A DNA stretch of 64,000 nucleotides from a virus (IMGVR_UViG_3300010885_040738:1-64000), one strand, 5' to 3'. Positions 20,812-57,656 are shown, numbered from the stretch's first letter. Made by a program: numbers and translations. Notes: a model not told the origin generated them from the letters alone.

Positions 20812-21297
20812 TCACAGTGTCTCCTCCCCGGCCAAATCAACCGCGTAAGCCGTCGCGCCAGACTCACAAGGAGGCATCACCGGCACCCTACCACGGATCG
20901 CGCACACAACCAGTGTGCCGTGCTCGTCCCGGTCGTCACTGTCGCGGACAGACCGCGAGACCGCAGCCATCGCAGCGTCGTGGTCTTTCTCCTGCACCAT
21001 GACCGCAACCATATTGCCGGTGGCATCGTCCATCGTGATTACGGTCCACCAGTCCAGCAGCGACGAAAACACGCCAGCCACATCTACCAGCGTCCGGCCA
21101 ACCTTGTCGGCATCGTCCAGTGACAAATACAGCATCACCGGCGCATCACTTTCCCTCGCTGCCGGGGCGCGCTTACTCCACGCCTCTAGGCAAACAGTAT
21201 CCTTGGCTCCGCAGCGGACGGCGGCACGCGCCGCCTGAAACACTCCGTTACGGCCCTTGCTCTTTACTCCCGTTTCTTTCAGTTCGATAAATGGCAT
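20812..21297 (-). CDS. Hypothetical protein, paralogue of 22043-22345
   Basis: Shared SKGRNGxFxAA and APVxLY motifs. Confidence 0.7.
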   Translation of the reverse strand: MPFIELKETGVKSKGRNGVFQAARAAVRCGAKDTVCLEAWSKRAPAARESDAPVMLYLSLDDADKVGRTLVDVAGVFSSLLDWWTVITMDDATGNMVAVMVQEKDHDAAMAAVSRSVRDSDDRDEHGTLVVCAIRGRVPVMPPCESGATAYAVDLAGEETL

Positions 21298-32283: not shown

Positions 32284-32931
32284 TTAGTTTCCCTCTCTCT
32301 TCAAAATCGGTGACAACGTGGCGGCAGTCCAAGGTTTCCCGGTCCGGCTCGGCATGGTGTCATTGGCGTTCAGGATCTCGGCGATCTCGGCCAGGGTCTT
32401 GCCATTTTGGCGCAGGAACTGGATAGAGTTCAGCGTCCGGTCCTCGCCGGGGCGGAACCCGAAAGGCTTGCGGCCCTCACAACGTCCGGTCTGTTCTTTC
32501 TTCCTTTGGCGTGCGCCTCGGAGTTTCAGGACAATGGATTGGCGCTCGTACTGGGCGAATCCGGCGAGAATGACGCGAAACAGCTGGCGCTCTGGCGATT
32601 GGTCGTCGGTGTCGTCGCCGTTCGTGCTGACGATCCGCACGTCCTTCTTCGCGAGATCCGCAAGAATGAGTTCCTGCACGAGCACCGCACGCGCTACCCT
32701 GTCGAATTTCTCGACAACGATGGTCCTCGTGCTGGACATCCCGGCGAGCATGGAAACCCACCCAGGGCGGTCTTGCCATTCGTCTTTCCCGGTCTGAGTG
32801 TCTTGGTACCAGTTCGTGATGGTCAGGTTGTGGGCGGCGGCGTGGGATTCGATGGCCTTGCGTTGTCGCGCAAAGCCATCTCCTTCTTCCTGCCCCTTGC
32901 CGCTGACGCGCATGTAGGCTACTGCGTTCAT
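32284..32931 (-). CDS. Serine recombinase (resolvase/invertase family)
   Basis: AYMRVS..Q, RPG, DRVAR, ER..I, G..PFG motifs and a C-terminal helical DNA-binding part. Confidence 0.9.
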   Translation of the reverse strand: MNAVAYMRVSGKGQEEGDGFARQRKAIESHAAAHNLTITNWYQDTQTGKDEWQDRPGWVSMLAGMSSTRTIVVEKFDRVARAVLVQELILADLAKKDVRIVSTNGDDTDDQSPERQLFRVILAGFAQYERQSIVLKLRGARQRKKEQTGRCEGRKPFGFRPGEDRTLNSIQFLRQNGKTLAEIAEILNANDTMPSRTGKPWTAATLSPILKREGN

Positions 32932-33605
32932 TGGCCACGCTCCGTAACTTCCCAGAGCGAGACAAAAGCCACGAGCCAGGCACGCTGATATCCCGTCAGA
33001 TCGTCGCGGTATAGCATCTCGTCTGCTGATTGGAGTGTGAGCGATTGAGACTCACACCACTTGACGTATGGACCTTGGAGCAGATCCCAGGCGTTTGGTT
33101 TCATGCGGCACCCCATCCGGCGAGTGCGTTGGCCTTGTCCTGTGTCTCTTTGGTGACGTTCACTCGAAACTCAACATCTGGTCTTACCATCTCGCACCGC
33201 AATCCACGCAAACCGGAGTTCCGGCAGACGTTGTGGTGGTATTCGCGTGACCACGGAGGCAAACCGGCGGCAGGTCCGGCGTCTGGCAGCATGTGCAGTC
33301 ATGGTTCCATGTCCACCGCAGCAAAGCTTGCTCCATTGTGTGCTCGGTCGCACCGCAGAACGCGCAGGACGGACGCCAAGCGTTAGCCATCGACCGCCGG
33401 AAGCTTTCCCAGGTGTGCGGGTTTCCCGGCGTCCATATCGCCCAACCACGGATACCTGGAACGTCGTTGAGCATTTCGGCGAAGCCGCGCATGTTGGGCG
33501 AGCGTTCCAACCGCTTGAAAGCTTCCTCAATGGTGTAGCAGTCATGTTGGCTCTGCTCTCGCCTTGTGTCGAAGTATTGTGTGACTCGAATCATCGTCTT
33601 TCCTT

Positions 33606-34078
33606 CTTCTTCCAACCAGATCGGTGGAACCCGTCTCTCCTTAGAGAGACAGGCACCAGCTACCTATTCGGGTATGTTCGCATCTTTCCTCTCTCCTCGC
33701 GGGTCACAGAGTAACCGCCCATGCGCCGTTGCGGTCAGCGACGACGCAGAATAGGCCGTCAATTTCCGCTAGGTACATTCGGTCAGTGTTCCCGCCGCTG
33801 CTGCCCTCGTAGACCGTGCGGAGGATAGTGCCGTCCGCACTTTCGATGGCAGCTGCAATGCCGCGCTCGTCGCCCTCGCCGGGTGCCCATCCGTCGCCGG
33901 AATCATTGCCTTTGTTCCACGCGGCGTTGAGTTCCGTGTCGGTCAGGCTCATCGCTTCAGTTTCGGTAATCATCGTCATTTCTTTTCCTTCTTCCAACCA
34001 GATCGGTGGAACCCGTCTCTCTACCTCTGTCAGCAGGTCAGAGAGACAGGCACCAGCTACCTATTCGGGTATGTTCGC
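33606..34078 (-). repeat. Duplicated structured leader element (33606-33681 and 33988-34078)
   Basis: Identical except the apical loop segment (3 vs 18 nt); brackets gene 33704-33979. Confidence 0.85.
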
Positions 34079-34138
34079 CCACGCGATCAGCACCGCCAGC
34101 ACCGTGAGCCACGCGAGAATGTTGGCGATCAGGCGCAT
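34061..34138 (-). CDS. 25-aa hydrophobic peptide MRLIANILAWLTVLAVLIAWANIPE
   Basis: Translated by hand; one TM-like helix; overlaps the end of the upstream gene. Confidence 0.5.
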   Translation of the reverse strand: MRLIANILAWLTVLAVLIAWANIPE

Positions 34139-35160
34139 GGAGTAGCAACCTCTTCCAAGTACCCAACCTCATGGCGATCACCAGCAAGGCCACCGCAGAC
34201 GCCACAATCGCGATGCGTGAACCCGGTTTCCTCCCCGACGATCAACCACTGGCCGATTTTTTTGATACCGGCCCTGACGCGCTGCTCGGTCTCGTCGTCC
34301 ATACCGGAGTAGTCATCGTATGCGATGGCACTCACGCAGTCCTCGCACGCGCCACCGAGGATGGACACATAGTTGTCCGGCTTCTGGTCGTCCTCGTCCT
34401 CGTCCTCGTCGTCCTCGTCCATCTCGCAAGGCCCGGTGTGGTCAGCACGGAGCGTGCATCGGACGTCATAGCACTCCCGAGTGTCGGCCTCAATCTCGCA
34501 GCATTCCGCACCCTCTTCCACGCCACAACCGCATTCCCGGCACTTGAGGAAGAGAACCCAACCCTGATCGGCAACCCAGGTCTTCTTCATGTTCGGGCAA
34601 CCAGTTTCGTGGCAGTTCACGCCGTTGATGGCGATGTAGTTGCATTGGTCGCACTTGGGAACGTCCTGCCATACCGCGACCGCCTCATATAGAGGTTCTG
34701 CGCCACCACCCCAAGCGAAGCGTTCGCCGGGTGCCAGCTTGGAGACCTCGGCAATCAGGTCGATACCGTCCTGCCCTGCGTCGTTGTCGGCCTCCATCTC
34801 GGCAAGGCTCAGTGTCATTGCCAGTTTGCTGTTCTCGTAGAAGTTGAATACAAGGCTCATTTGGACACCGCCAGGCTGCAATCGCGAACGTAATCGGCGT
34901 GCTCGGCGGCAGGGTTAGCCTTGGCGTAGCCCTCAATGCACGCGATGAAGTGCAGGACATCCTGTGCTGGTGCGGAGAATCGACCGCCACCGCAGCGGAC
35001 TAGTATCTGGGTCAGTCTGGTATTTGGGTCAGCGGCGATGGCCTCAATCTGGTGGAGGCGGAGAAACCAGCCCATCGTCTTGGCGTCTGCAATAGCGTCA
35101 GCGCCAGTGTATTCGGTCTCGTTGATCTCTGCTTGGGTAATCTGTGACATACTCTTCTTT

Positions 35161-35217
35161 CTCCTCATCAGTGCCGGATTAACCGGACATACGGACCCGG
35201 TAAGGTCCGTTTCGGAG
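35161..35217 (-). ncRNA. Hammerhead ribozyme, type II
   Basis: CUCC-GAAA-[stem III CGGACC/GGUCCG]-UA-[stem I]-CUGAUGA-GGAG; complete core; intergenic. Confidence 0.9.
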
Positions 35218-35790
35218 TGTTTACTTGTCGCGCAAAGGACCATCCGGTGCAGGCATCGCCCTGAGCGCCGCGTAGTCCTCAGCCGTCCAGGGATCACCCT
35301 CGTTGAAGTTGAAATCAACAATTCCCTCCCCGCGCTCATAGACCACCGTGGCGCGATGCCATAGCGGGATACCCGTCGCTGGATGCCCGAGTTCGAGTTC
35401 AACGATGTCGCCGTGATTCAGTAGTGCGGGGTCCCCGCCGGGAACCATCTTCAGTCGCCGTCGCCCCGGTCCAAAGTCTTCGACTGCTTCAATCACAAAC
35501 TTGACCATCGTGGCACCGCAGCTTTCGCAGGGGAACGGGTAAGATTTCTCGCCATCGTTGCCGCAGTTTTGGCTCGGGCAGATGTAGCTGTCATCAGTCA
35601 GCGGGTAGAGTACAACGTCCATGCAGCCTGATTCTTTGTCAATGGTGACCTTGCCACCACGGTCATGGAGGATGCCCGTCGAGGGGTCTCTCAGTTCCAG
35701 CGATACCAAGTCGCCGTCGTTCCACTCTGTTGTACTTCCACCTTCAATACGCTTGATGAGTTTCATGTTTGGGTAATGCTCCTTTCTTAT

Positions 35791-35819
35791 AGAGTATTAG
35801 ATTACCTAGCCACCTGCAA
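35791..35819 (-). promoter_or_regulatory. Promoter of the leftward block
   Basis: TTGCAG-N17-TACTCT followed by SD AAGGAG and ATG 35766. Confidence 0.65.
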
Positions 35820-36329
35820 GCATATTCTGCGGAAAAGCCTACATTGGTCGATTTTTGGCAGTTTGGGGCAAAAAGTGACCTCGTAGAAGCCGCTAGGACG
35901 CGCTGACACAGGTCGTCTGATACCTGAGTACCCGGCAAATCGGACCCGAAAACCAGATTTTTGACGATCCCGGCGACACTATAGAAGGACGGCGGCACCG
36001 CCGGACACCGCACTACTGGCCGGATTTTTTGACGGCGGCACCGCCGGACCCTGCCCTGGTCCTGCCCAAAACCTGCCCGGCGGAAGCTGGAAAACCCGAA
36101 CCCTCGTCGGTGGAACCCTCACCTGGGCGAGTAACTTGGTGGAGGATGGACCACCTCAGCCATCCAAGAGGAGGACGGCGGCACCGACGAGGGCGCGGTC
36201 GCGCCACTACCACCGCGGACCTCGGTGCCTTTTTTCAACGAGGCCACCCCTCCCCCTATGCCCTAAACGTTAGGTACTTTCGGGTAATCGGAGTAAAGTG
36301 ATGCCCACGTACGAGAGCGCAATCACGTT

Positions 36330-36359
36330 TTGACGTTTTCGCCCTTTACCCTGTATACT
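36330..36359 (+). promoter_or_regulatory. Promoter for a leaderless gene
   Basis: TTGACG-N18-TATACT, ATG 7 nt downstream. Confidence 0.65.
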
Positions 36360-36366
36360 GCTGTAT

Positions 36367-37047
36367 ATGGTGAACAGGTCTTTGGTGGTTAAGGGTATAG
36401 TTGGCGATTATTGCGAGATGGTGGCTGCGGCTGCGTTTATTGCTGGGGGGGCACAGCTTGCGAAGGCATGGGGCACGTCGCCGGACTGGGACTTTCTGGT
36501 GAAGGAGGACGGTGAGCAATGGCGAAGTGTTCAGGTGAAGACGGTTGGCCGGCTAAATGGGCATGGTGACTCGCCGTATGTTGATTTGACAAGGACCGCT
36601 GGCGCCGGCTGTTATCAGGTAGGTGATGTCGACATGGTTGTTGGGGTGTATCCCGAGACTGGGGCAATGTGGAAGGTGATGCCGGAGGCGTTTGCTGGAG
36701 CGCGGCTACTGAGGCTGGATGACGAGTGGCTATGGGTAGGGAACGTGGATAGGCGATCGCTTCCGATGAGCAACGTGCTGGCGCTAAAGATTGAGCGAAA
36801 GAGCCGTGCCGGGTGCATATCTGCAGTGCGTGAGAAGTTACAGGAGGAGAGGCGCGGCTTGTGGCTTGGGGATCTCAGCGAGCGGCCGGATAGTGTGTCT
36901 GCCGGTACGTGGGACGTGTTTGTGATGTGGATGGGTGGGCACGGGTACAAGTCGATAGCGGACAAGCACGGGCTGACTGCCCCGGGCGTGAGGGATCGGA
37001 TGGTTCGTTTGTGCCGGCGGCTTGGGATCAAAGGTGGGCCTATTTGA
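36367..37047 (+). CDS. PD-(D/E)XK endonuclease with C-terminal HTH
   Basis: KG..G...E, WDFLV, VQVKT motifs; GYKSIADKHGLT..GVRD HTH. Confidence 0.75.
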   Translation: MVNRSLVVKGIVGDYCEMVAAAAFIAGGAQLAKAWGTSPDWDFLVKEDGEQWRSVQVKTVGRLNGHGDSPYVDLTRTAGAGCYQVGDVDMVVGVYPETGAMWKVMPEAFAGARLLRLDDEWLWVGNVDRRSLPMSNVLALKIERKSRAGCISAVREKLQEERRGLWLGDLSERPDSVSAGTWDVFVMWMGGHGYKSIADKHGLTAPGVRDRMVRLCRRLGIKGGPI

Positions 37048-53268: not shown

Positions 53269-54753
53269 ATGATCAAACGCACGATTTTGGCGCTGACTGC
53301 CATGGCCGTCAGCCTGTTCGCACAGACATCAACCTTCCCGACGGCCGTCGCCACTGACGCTGACCTCAAGGTTCAGGTAAACGGCACTCAAACCACTCTG
53401 ACCGCGGCACTTAGCGCCGTAGCCACTAGCACGACAGTCTCCAGTTGCACTCGCATCGGGCCGAATATGCTGGCGACCATCAACACCGAGATCATCGCAA
53501 TTGCCAACTGTCTCGGGACCACGCTCACTTTCGCGACTACCTCGCCTGGCTGCACGAATGGCAGGGCCTGCGACAATTCGACGGCCGCCGCACATGCCTC
53601 TGGAGCCAACGTCAGCCTGTTTGCCGATGCGTGGCACCACAACGCCTTGCGCGTGCAGGTGGAGGCTATCCAAACCGCTTTGTACAGAGGTGCCAGCCCG
53701 ACGTGGGCCAATATCACGTCGAACGCGAATGTCAACGCAAAGGCTTTCAACTTTTACGACAACACAGGGGAGGTGATCGATTTTGGCCACTTCGGCATGG
53801 ACGCGAAGGTTAACGCTATTGACAAAGAACTATATATCAGAGACACTGCCGGAGCGGTAATGTTGACGTTGAGGTCTAGCGGCAGCGCTTACATTGGTTC
53901 AGTGCTAAACTTCGTTGTCGGCAGCAACCTCAGTGAGAAAAACCTGCAGGTTTACGGCACGGTCACGGCGACAGGTACGGTTTCTTCATCACGCAGTACG
54001 GCCGGTAGCGCTATATCCGGGACAACGACCTATGCGGACCCGGCGGCGTACGGCGTGTATGGGTCATCGACAAACGGCGCCGGTATTTACGGCGTTTCAC
54101 TTTATGGAACTGGCGTCAAGGGTTCTGGCTCGACTTATGGCGTGTATGGGTCGTCCACATCAGGCAATGGCGTTTTTGGTATAGACACTGCAGGCGGAGC
54201 AGGCGTAACTGGAAGCAGCGATGCTGGCTATGGCCTTCGCGGCCTGTCTGATTCCGGGGTAGCGATCATTGCCTCAAGCGTTTCAGGTGTGGCCCTTTCT
54301 GTCACCAGAAACAATAGCGGCCCAGCCGTAACGATTACGACAACTGCAAGCGGCAGCGGCATTTTAGTAAACGCTGCAAATAGCACGGTAATTACCGGCA
54401 CTACAGGTTCATCGACATCCGCAGTTCTGATTGATAGCGGCGGCACTTGCACGATCCGTGCGTCGGCAGGTATTGCCTGCGTTTCCGACGGGCGGAACAA
54501 AAAAGATGTGCGACCAGTCCCATCTTCCCTCGCCAAGGTTCTCCGCTTAAAACCGGTTGAGTACAACATGATAAGCGATGGCCAGCATGCCGTCGGGCTT
54601 ATTGCGCAGGAAGTGCAGAAACAGTTTCCCCAAGCTGTGCAGGAGACAGAAGACGGGAAACTGACTCTTTCCTACCAGCAATTGTTTCCGTACCTGTTGA
54701 AGGCAGTGCAGGAGCAGCAGGTTGAGATCAACAGGCTGAAGGCTCGCAAATGA
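53269..54753 (+). CDS. Tail fibre with Peptidase S74 intramolecular chaperone and signal-peptide-like N-terminus
   Basis: GVYG repeats; SDGRNKKDV...LKPVEY...GLIAQEV; MIKRTILALTAMAVSLFA-Q. Confidence 0.8.
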   Translation: MIKRTILALTAMAVSLFAQTSTFPTAVATDADLKVQVNGTQTTLTAALSAVATSTTVSSCTRIGPNMLATINTEIIAIANCLGTTLTFATTSPGCTNGRACDNSTAAAHASGANVSLFADAWHHNALRVQVEAIQTALYRGASPTWANITSNANVNAKAFNFYDNTGEVIDFGHFGMDAKVNAIDKELYIRDTAGAVMLTLRSSGSAYIGSVLNFVVGSNLSEKNLQVYGTVTATGTVSSSRSTAGSAISGTTTYADPAAYGVYGSSTNGAGIYGVSLYGTGVKGSGSTYGVYGSSTSGNGVFGIDTAGGAGVTGSSDAGYGLRGLSDSGVAIIASSVSGVALSVTRNNSGPAVTITTTASGSGILVNAANSTVITGTTGSSTSAVLIDSGGTCTIRASAGIACVSDGRNKKDVRPVPSSLAKVLRLKPVEYNMISDGQHAVGLIAQEVQKQFPQAVQETEDGKLTLSYQQLFPYLLKAVQEQQVEINRLKARK

Positions 54754-55761: not shown

Positions 55762-57656
55762 TGACGCCGCTTCCGATCCAGTACACAACTTCTGACGCCT
55801 CCCTGATCGGCGACGTTGACGGTGCAAACCGTAGCTATTACTTTGTCCCTGTACCGAATCTTTTGCTTTGCAGCGCGACCGGCATTCGGTCATTTCTGAT
55901 GTTCTGGAACGGACTACTGGTTGACCAGCCCGGCGACTACGTGGCGCACAACGGGTACTTCGTCTTTAACTCCTCGGTCCAGTTCGACACTGCGACGGCG
56001 CTGGCGTACACCGACACCGCGCCGTCAATTCTTCGCCTCTCTGACACGTCGATCACTGCCTTTGGAAGCAACTCCCTCCGGATCTCATTCGGCAACGCCG
56101 CATTCGTTGCGCAGCGGCAGTTCGTCCTGTTCCGCAACGGGCTTCGCCTCACCGACGGGCTGGACTACACGTCGTCGGGTCCGTGGATCAACCTTGTTGC
56201 CGGGCAGGAGATTTTGGACGGCGACCAGTATTCGGTTCTCATCGGTCCAGTCGGAACGGCCTGCAGTACCGCCAACGGAACGATCACTGGCTTGATAGAT
56301 GGGCTCAATCTCAACTTTGAAGTTCCTAACACCGGGCCGCTCTGGCTGTTCAAGAATGGCATTTTTTTGACTGAAGGGCTGGACTTCAGCAGGTACGAGA
56401 CGACAGTGAGCCTGCGCGGGCAAGCACCATTGCCGGGGGATACACTGACCGGGCAACTTTTGCCTGCCGGTTATTCATTCACCGAGCTTTCAACCTTCAG
56501 TGATGCTTTCATTTCGAGTCCGGTTGCCACGCAAAGTAACACAGTCGATGGGTCGATAACAGGATCAATAGACGGCTACAACGCTGCCTTTACAATCCCG
56601 GAAGGGTCTCAGAATTTTTGGCTGTTCCGTGATGGGCAGCTTTTGACTAACGACCTCGATTATTCAAGACTTGGTCAGATTGTTACTCTGGCAGGAGATC
56701 AGGTCCCGATCCCGGGCGATCTCCTGACCGGCCAATCATTCGCCTCCGGGAACATGCTGCAGGCGTCAACGTATGCAGGTTCCATCACCGGAACCATTGA
56801 TGGCGTCAACCCTGACTTCGTCGTCCCTTCGGGGGCCTCAAGCTTATGGCTCTTCAGAAACGGGCAACTGCTTACCCGGGGGCTGGACTACACACTGGCT
56901 GTGGATACCGTTACTCTTTTAGGCACGGCGATCCCCTCTGGCGATGATGTTTTGACGGCCAAATACACCAGCGCCACCTTCTCTGCGCAAATTTCAACCT
57001 TCGACAACTCAATCACTGGGACCATCAATGGCGTCAATGATACATTCACCGTCCCGGATGGATCTGCCGGGATATGGATTTCCCGTAATGGGCAATTCCT
57101 TACCGAATTGGTGGACTACATAAGGGCGGGAGCGGTCATTATCATGTCCCCTTGGCAGATCCCGATAGTTGGCGATGTGCTCACAGGGCAGGCATATCAA
57201 TATGGCCCGTCTGCGGTGTTTTCGGTTTATGGCGGAGGGCTGACATTTTCCGTAGCTGCCGCGTCATGGGTATTCGCCGATGGGCTGATCCTGCCGCAGC
57301 TCGGATCAGCGCAGGCAGACGGGAATAGCATCACGCTAACGGATGCGGCAATCTCAGGCAGCACCATCACTGCAGAGTCATGGGTGCAAATTGCATCCGA
57401 GCCTGAACAGCCGGCGCTCAATTTTGGTACGCAGTACAGTTCAGACGATGGCGGGATCTCCGGCGACATGAATAGCTCAAATGCGGTGTTCACCATCAAC
57501 GACAGCGGACTGATCACGCAGGTCATGCTTTTCGTGAATCGCAGGTTTCTGGTTCAGAATCGCGACTACGCTTGGACAGGAAACACAATTACCATGCTGG
57601 CAGGCAGTATCCCTGACGCCGGCGACGTCTTTACCTCGATCGTATTCAGCGATTGA
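55761..57656 (+). CDS. Virion protein built of tandem ~70-aa repeats
   Basis: Repeated G.IDG.N..F...LFRNG..LT...DY...P..GD.LT. Confidence 0.75.
   Translation: MTPLPIQYTTSDASLIGDVDGANRSYYFVPVPNLLLCSATGIRSFLMFWNGLLVDQPGDYVAHNGYFVFNSSVQFDTATALAYTDTAPSILRLSDTSITAFGSNSLRISFGNAAFVAQRQFVLFRNGLRLTDGLDYTSSGPWINLVAGQEILDGDQYSVLIGPVGTACSTANGTITGLIDGLNLNFEVPNTGPLWLFKNGIFLTEGLDFSRYETTVSLRGQAPLPGDTLTGQLLPAGYSFTELSTFSDAFISSPVATQSNTVDGSITGSIDGYNAAFTIPEGSQNFWLFRDGQLLTNDLDYSRLGQIVTLAGDQVPIPGDLLTGQSFASGNMLQASTYAGSITGTIDGVNPDFVVPSGASSLWLFRNGQLLTRGLDYTLAVDTVTLLGTAIPSGDDVLTAKYTSATFSAQISTFDNSITGTINGVNDTFTVPDGSAGIWISRNGQFLTELVDYIRAGAVIIMSPWQIPIVGDVLTGQAYQYGPSAVFSVYGGGLTFSVAAASWVFADGLILPQLGSAQADGNSITLTDAAISGSTITAESWVQIASEPEQPALNFGTQYSSDDGGISGDMNSSNAVFTINDSGLITQVMLFVNRRFLVQNRDYAWTGNTITMLAGSIPDAGDVFTSIVFSD

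Follow-up and report, generated by a model that had tools for sequence, protein, structure and literature searches.

A type II hammerhead motif whose stem II includes the Shine-Dalgarno sequence of the next gene in a phage gene block

What might a self-cleaving RNA motif do between two genes of a phage when one strand of its stem II is also the Shine-Dalgarno (SD) sequence of the second gene? Known bacterial and phage hammerheads number in the thousands. Those of type II are frequent among bacteria and are also found in the intergenic regions of phages (Perreault et al. 2011, PMC3088659), and reviews of 2019 and 2026 still describe the roles of bacterial and phage hammerheads as unresolved. 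The locus considered here lies in an IMG/VR virus record of 93 kb with an estimated completeness of 96%, of which the window, the whole 64,000-nt stretch of DNA that was analysed, forms part. The plus strand of this phage carries a large terminase, a P22-like portal and tail-fibre genes, and the motif is located in a leftward block of small genes. The closest cultured-phage match of the large terminase is 25% identical, and GenBank phages give no DNA match to the 3-kb region of the locus or to the 79-nt element. Elsewhere in the window, a tail-fibre-like protein (53269-54753, plus strand) ends in a Peptidase_S74 intramolecular chaperone domain (E 7.6e-13), and a 215-aa protein (32284-32931, minus strand) matches serine recombinase and invertase-resolvase models (XisF, Mpi, YneB) with a best E of 9e-14, all of these matches being under the model cut-offs. 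A weak PhotoRC-I RNA match on the plus strand (56801-56836; 22.2 bits, gathering score 45) is probably only a GC hairpin.

A hammerhead motif between two small genes

A complete type II hammerhead motif occupies 35217-35161 of the minus strand, within the gap of 70-76 nt that separates the stop codon of the upstream gene, P0001, from the AUG of the downstream gene, P0002. From 5′ to 3′ this strand reads UAA, ACA, CUCC, GAAA, the hairpin CGGACCU-UACC-GGGUCCG, UA, the hairpin UG(U)CCGG-UUAAU-CCGGCA, CUGAUGA, GGAG, AAAGAAGAGU and AUG. Stem II opens with CUCC (35214-35217, positions 11.4-11.1), which is complementary to the SD and is preceded by the unpaired A35218, and it is followed by G12, A13 and A14 of the core (35211-35213), placed from the sequence and the Rfam alignment. 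The stem III hairpin (35191-35210) comprises A15.1-U16.1 (A35210-U35191), C15.2-G16.2 (C35209-G35192) and six further pairs, closed by the loop UACC. A17 of the GUA triplet, in keeping with the rule that H17 is not G, lies at 35190, and the hammerhead numbering rule predicts scission 3′ of it, between 35190 and 35189. The stem I hairpin (35172-35189) is formed by U35189-A35172, G35188-C35173, a bulged U35187 and CCGG/CCGG, with the loop UUAAU at 35182-35178. It is followed by the core CUGAUGA (35165-35171; C3, U4, G5, A6, U7, G8 and A9) and by the second strand of stem II, GGAG (35161-35164, positions 10.1-10.4), in which G10.1 pairs with C11.1 (G35164-C35214). Every canonical core position (C3-A9, G12-A14, A15.1-U16.1, C15.2-G16.2 and G10.1-C11.1) is therefore present, and the type II permutation is seen in stems I and III being loop-capped while stem II is open. 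A preliminary description of this DNA had reported a complete type II core between the stop at 35221 and the ATG at 35150; our inspection agrees at all core positions, and all of its coordinates are correct, including the predicted cut at 35190/35189 and the GAGGAG at 35166-35161.

GGAG is read as GAGGAG when G8 and A9 are counted, and an A-rich spacer of 10 nt (35151-35160) separates it from the start codon; in relatives this distance is 5-9 nt. Elsewhere in this phage, genes have GGAG-type SDs at 5-12 nt from their start codons, so that GAGGAG 10 nt before the AUG is a normal ribosome binding site (RBS) here. The sequence before AUG 35150 contains no SD other than the GGAG of stem II, which bears out the earlier proposal that this strand serves the next gene as its SD.

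The gene upstream, P0001 (35221-35766, minus strand; stop UAA at 35223-35221), encodes a 181-aa protein of no assigned family with a CxxC...CxxC arrangement that resembles a zinc ribbon. It is an ORFan, with no relatives found in viral contigs and a single near-identical protein (97% identical) overall. Compared with a variant contig that is 92% identical, 11 of the 18 differences in P0001 fall on third codon positions, which marks it as coding. About 600 nt (35767-36366) without a convincing gene separate P0001 from a rightward gene at 36367, and a sigma-70-like promoter match on the plus strand (36330-36359) lies inside this stretch. P0001 may be the first gene of a leftward operon.

The gene downstream, P0002 (34857-35150, minus strand), encodes a 97-aa member of a conserved family of small phage proteins to which Pfam, PHROG and NCBIfam give no assignment. 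The family is marked by LVRCGGGRF..APAQDV.HF..DYVRDVS; in its 79 matches LVRCGG.RF, PA..V and DY.RD are invariant, the invariant residues being R45, L50-V-R-C-G54, R57-F58, P61-A62, V65, D86-Y87 and R89-D90, and the closest homologues of P0002 include P0003 (76% identity). Genes of this family occur in 19 viral loci and hammerheads accompany them at only one, L005, so the ribozyme is no fixed companion of the family. L005 carries a 47% identical P0002 homologue and two type II hammerheads (1834-1888 and 204-259), both with CUGACGA. The one at 1834-1888 lies between an upstream stop and the P0002-like gene, which has a separate SD, and may be impaired by the A at position 10.1 opposite C11.1.

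At its gathering threshold Rfam gives no match anywhere in the window, because the score for Hammerhead_II (RF02276, clan CL00010) is 36.5 bits and the gathering score 37 bits. The half-bit shortfall comes from the bulged U of stem I, which is read as a C.C mismatch, and from a non-consensus 3′ tail. With the Rfam hammerhead models, a check that the preliminary description suggested, the element falls just short of the curated cut-off; RF02276 gives the only ribozyme-family match in the window, with an E value of 2.7e-6 for a 181-nt search and 9.4e-4 for the 64-kb window. We also built a covariance model, R1, from eight diverse phage type II hammerheads of equal length, one of which (L025) is kin of the element; R1 scores the element at 36.9 bits (E about 3e-11, a rough value), places U35187 as a bulge and pairs all stems. 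The 93-kb record holds a single hammerhead, with one match to RF02276 and one significant match to R1. A further R1 match at 20941-20984 (10.2 bits) was rejected because it consists of hairpins and lacks the core.

The hammerhead fold is the minimum free energy structure of the gap (-23.5 kcal/mol, z = -2.3), with all three helices formed. It persists in a 200-nt context, where stem II pairs have probabilities of 0.87-0.88 and the stem I pairs adjoining the cut are weak (0.37-0.49). A reading of stem III as a terminator was discarded, there being no following U-tract and no hit of the terminator scan at this place. A score slightly under the curated Rfam cut-off could be taken as a sign of chance resemblance in a GC-rich intergenic hairpin region. 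We consider this extremely improbable, in view of the E values obtained with both models, the exact filling of the intergenic gap by the motif, and the compensatory changes found in close and distant relatives, by which homologues contradict it. The element is very probably a genuine ribozyme, and the placement of a type II hammerhead between two phage genes, as proposed earlier, is confirmed for P0001 and P0002.

Homologues, covariation and loop I

A broad pattern that fixed only CCGAAAC, GUH and CUGAUGAGG matched at least 120 stretches of viral contigs. Among the matches listed, 119 of the 137 parsed form both hairpins stably; with shuffled hairpin interiors the share falls to 1.8%, and nearly all of the pattern matches are therefore taken to be real hammerheads. 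A narrower CUCC...GGAG pattern found 6 viral and 42 metagenome stretches, which after parsing comprise about 18 distinct true hammerheads and about 14 non-folding chance matches. An A stands directly before CUCC in 18 of 18 relatives, and the roughly 13 catalytic core nucleotides are intact in the element and in every relative.

When 27 hammerheads (25 distinct) are aligned to R1, 98.6% of cells are paired, and both partners have changed in 11 of the 15 pairs. Covariation scores 0.513, compared with 0.119 for shuffled alignments (none of 500 as high) and at most 0.096 with slid partners. The alignment is model-based; MAFFT alignments misplaced stem III. As the search pattern fixed the core (and stem II in most rows), only folding sequences were kept and the alignment was fitted to the model, these values are evidence of covariation for stems I and III only. 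In these two stems double changes occur in 9 of 11 pairs across the 25 distinct relatives, and all six stem I pairs covary. CCGG/CCGG of stem I becomes GCGG/CCGC in L175, for example, and stem III occurs as CGCC-UUCG-GGCG, as CGGGU-CUAG-GCCCG and in the 8-bp form of the window. Stem II covaries in the broader sample, with GGC/GCC, GGCC/GGCC, GGUC/GACC and GGAU/AUCC.

Several contigs, among the matches listed, hold between three and eight type II hammerheads each. These arrays (eight in about 4 kb in L052, four in L073, three each in L040 and L051, and five R1 matches in L197) have a hammerhead at roughly every junction of small genes. In L040 the only possible SD for each AUG is the core GAGG, followed by U, at a distance of 6-8 nt upstream.

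The element shares with RF02276 the same core, the same circular permutation and the unpaired A before stem II, and like other phage type II hammerheads it is intergenic in a phage operon and lies directly after a stop codon; as in most phage examples, its stem II is of 3-4 bp. It departs from the type II consensus in its score half a bit under the Rfam cut-off, in the doubling of CUCC/GGAG as the SD of the next gene and in the absence of a pseudoknot between loop I and the 3′ tail. Such a pseudoknot is present in the majority of type II hammerheads, though not in all (PMC3088659). The UUAAU of loop I has no AUUAA-like partner in AAAGAAGAGU, directly 3′ of stem II, and no consistent partner was seen in kin. 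Inspection by eye for a pseudoknot with the tail or the 5′ flank, in the window and its kin, gave only scattered 4-nt matches inside coding sequence, and these were rejected. The loop I pseudoknot gives most type II hammerheads their speed at low Mg2+. As it is missing here, the cut could be slow in vivo. A U-N-A-A-U loop is retained in the kin, as is a bulge at position 1.3 in 8 of the 9 closest; this retention hints at another tertiary contact.

A conserved junction between exchanged genes

A BLASTN comparison of 33500-37000 with kin loci confines the similarity at 11 loci (82-87% identity) to a span beginning at 35153/35160 and ending at 35218/35223. This span is exactly the ribozyme, and the flanking genes are unrelated. 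The proteins on either side belong to at least three upstream and at least five downstream families in varying combinations. By their endings, the upstream families are ...SNPLIQISL* (L147, L148, L160, L172, L176 and L177), ...WYFSAYPEAREQ* (L025 and L150) and ...GGFVQIGG..* (L158 and L175). A resemblance of the downstream gene of L169 to P0002, noticed by eye, was dropped when BLASTP showed no relation. The hammerhead of about 55 nt is the only conserved DNA at these junctions and has the appearance of a linker at a mosaic boundary. Two of the kin are syntenic relatives: L177 and L172 share 34391-34548 with the window, to which L177 adds 33697-33989 and further blocks. In both, the ribozyme is retained at the same junction and is directly followed by a different gene.

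Across 35050-35302, a stretch of 253 nt that comprises the ribozyme, the last 80 nt of P0001 and the first 100 nt of P0002, the window matches the 92% identical variant (L173, contig Ga0181357_1002839) at every position. As this stretch adjoins 34813-35049 (237 nt), in which about 17% of positions differ, a recombination breakpoint near 35050 is suggested by the comparison.

These junctions recall the hammerhead clusters of prophages, which are arranged around single genes whose identity varies and have been shown to cleave both in vitro and in E. coli, and for which transcript processing has been suggested (PMC3088659). In the clusters described from A. tumefaciens (ardA), C. scindens and A. 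caulinodans the proposed role, the cutting of phage transcripts to gene length, is the one we favour here, and the identity of the flanking gene is likewise not constant. The clusters differ from our element in that at least two hammerheads bracket a gene or a short block, whereas ours is a single copy in 93 kb.

The same observations admit an element that is ribozyme-shaped and catalytically idle in vivo, acting as a coupling hairpin set, as an mRNA stabiliser or as a recombination linker of mosaic phages. The absent pseudoknot, the weak pairing of stem I by the cut site, the joining of so many unrelated families by the one ribozyme sequence and the suggested recombination boundary all speak for it. 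A mere hairpin, however, would not need the core nucleotides that are intact here and in every relative. Its stems covary around an invariant core, and phage hammerheads of the same kind that have been tested do cleave (PMC3088659). We regard an idle element as improbable.

Stem II, ribosome binding and a model for cleavage

The overlap of SD and stem II recurs. Of about 18 distinct CUCC/GGAG hammerheads, 16 have an ORF-opening AUG 5-10 nt after GGAG, and a likely 17th (L181) has its AUG 5 nt after GGAG, in an ORF that runs off the contig end. L156 and L164 have their own GGAGG further on, and L152 is an ambiguous case. In most CUCC/GGAG relatives, CUCC follows the upstream stop codon at a distance of 0-5 nt. 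Start codons at such distances also occur among the roughly 14 non-folding matches, with an ORF-opening ATG at 6 nt in L189 and GTG starts in the 5-10-nt range in L157 and L183.

A comparison sample of 105 distinct phage type II hammerheads, in which positions 10.3-10.4 were unconstrained, gives a different picture of how common the layout is. Here 76 of the 105 retain a separate downstream SD-like motif, a stem II strand GGAG occurs in none, and a start codon comes within 12 nt of the core GAGG in at most 14, so the SD within stem II is a minority solution. In a second search, which demanded GGAG and left the opposite strand free, about half of the true hammerheads with GGAG as SD pair only G10.1-G10.2 (L024/L027, L196, L197, L200 and L201), from which it follows that full masking of the SD is not conserved. 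Together, the separate SDs and the pairing of GG only make it less likely that masking of the SD drove the evolution of the overlap. The kind of ribozyme is already known; its built-in SD is a recurrent and little-described feature. A full-text literature search found no description of a natural hammerhead whose stem II is an SD, which is an absence rather than a proof, and Perreault et al. (2011, PMC3088659) describe no RBS inside a ribozyme, the word "translation" being used 0 times in their main text.

We propose a model in which a genuine type II hammerhead in a leftward polycistron has the separation of messages as its main job and a modest coupling to the SD in addition, and to which we assign a probability of about 0.55. 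As the type II order places the SD strand last, the ribozyme can fold only after that strand has been made; once the last element, CUGAUGA-GGAG, is transcribed, we infer that the RNA folds and cuts itself after A35190. The P0001 message would then end in the stem III hairpin with a 2′,3′-cyclic phosphate, and the P0002 message would have a 5′-OH at its start and the stem I hairpin placed 8 nt ahead of the SD. Two messages would thus be separated, each with a hairpin-capped end. Decay of bacterial mRNA proceeds by the 5′-end-dependent action of RNase E and RppH and by 3′ exonucleases, and on this basis the hairpins, the cyclic phosphate and the 5′-OH should protect both messages.

The same GGAG is SD and stem II strand, which makes folding of the ribozyme and binding of the 30S subunit mutually exclusive and implies some coupling between cutting and translation. 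After the cut the products would be held by 4 bp only and should part. The duplex is computed at -6.2 kcal/mol, with a predicted Kd of tens of micromolar, in keeping with the earlier suggestion that cleavage separates the anti-SD CUCC from the SD. The fragment with CUCC would leave and the SD would be permanently free. In RNA that is still uncut, a ribosome terminating at the UAA of P0001 would cover CUCC, as the stop codon is 3 nt away, and is expected to melt stem II and free the SD transiently. Cleavage may in this way turn a coupled gene pair into two independent messages.

The preliminary description went further and had cleavage switch on translation, with P0002 remaining essentially untranslated until the SD is unmasked from CUCC. 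The pairing of the SD strand in stem II (probability 0.87 in the 200-nt context) and the use of GGAG as the sole SD in 16 of the 18 CUCC/GGAG relatives favour such gating. There are also precedents in other systems. Masking of the SD in a ribozyme helix is the standard design of engineered hammerhead and twister switches, which control E. coli expression through SD accessibility (twister platform, Felletti et al. 2016, PMC5052635; hammerhead switch, Wieland and Hartig 2008, as cited there). Our element resembles them in having an SD/anti-SD helix within a ribozyme in a 5′ leader and in the predicted freeing of the SD by the cut; the engineered switches are artificial, usually bear an aptamer and have longer masking helices (PMC5052635), whereas ours is a natural one that lacks a ligand domain and has a mask of only 4 bp. 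In fungal and plant RNA viruses, 5′-UTR hammerheads enable cap-independent translation by self-cleavage, which in fungal RNA viruses is required for initiation (Lopez-Galiano et al. 2026, PMC13725137). These too are viral hammerheads just 5′ of an ORF, and their cleavage is tied to translation, as is proposed for the element, but they are of type I, serve eukaryotic cap-independent translation in RNA genomes and involve no SD (PMC13725137).

Against gating stands the small computed effect of the cut on the SD. Opening GAGGAG costs 1.84 kcal/mol in the uncleaved RNA, 1.39 in the cleaved 3′ product and 1.26 with a ribosome over the UAA region, values that consider secondary structure only and may understate the masking. 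In the family as a whole, cleavage is not consistently predicted to make the SD more accessible: five members are unchanged or worse. A 4-bp helix would be a weak barrier to a 30S subunit, and a terminating ribosome would unmask the SD without a cut. Moreover, the pairing of GG only in about half of the GGAG-SD hammerheads undermines masking as the basis of a switch, and the prevalence of separate downstream SDs among ordinary phage type II hammerheads points the same way. Strict gating is thus, to our minds, doubtful, and the switch as first described is a reasonable but probably overstated reading of the locus. On these calculations we expect the coupling of cutting and translation in our model to be real but modest, with no on/off switch.

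A tentative further reading would make the locus a natural ribozyme-operated RBS, one of a subclass of phage type II hammerheads in which the placing of the SD in stem II lets downstream translation and self-cleavage control each other. In its coupled mode, translation from uncleaved RNA would require stem II to be melted by a ribosome that terminates on P0001, and the cut would irreversibly yield an independent message with hairpin protection. If true, this would be the first regulatory function assigned to a phage hammerhead and a natural counterpart of the engineered SD-masking ribozymes.

The ribozyme is conserved where its flanking genes are swapped, which bears on how mosaic phage genomes are assembled. 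Furthermore, as its stem II is the only SD of the next gene, the locus offers a clean test of whether such a ribozyme acts on translation, on mRNA stability or on both. A built-in ribosome site could in this way give phage hammerheads a testable job.
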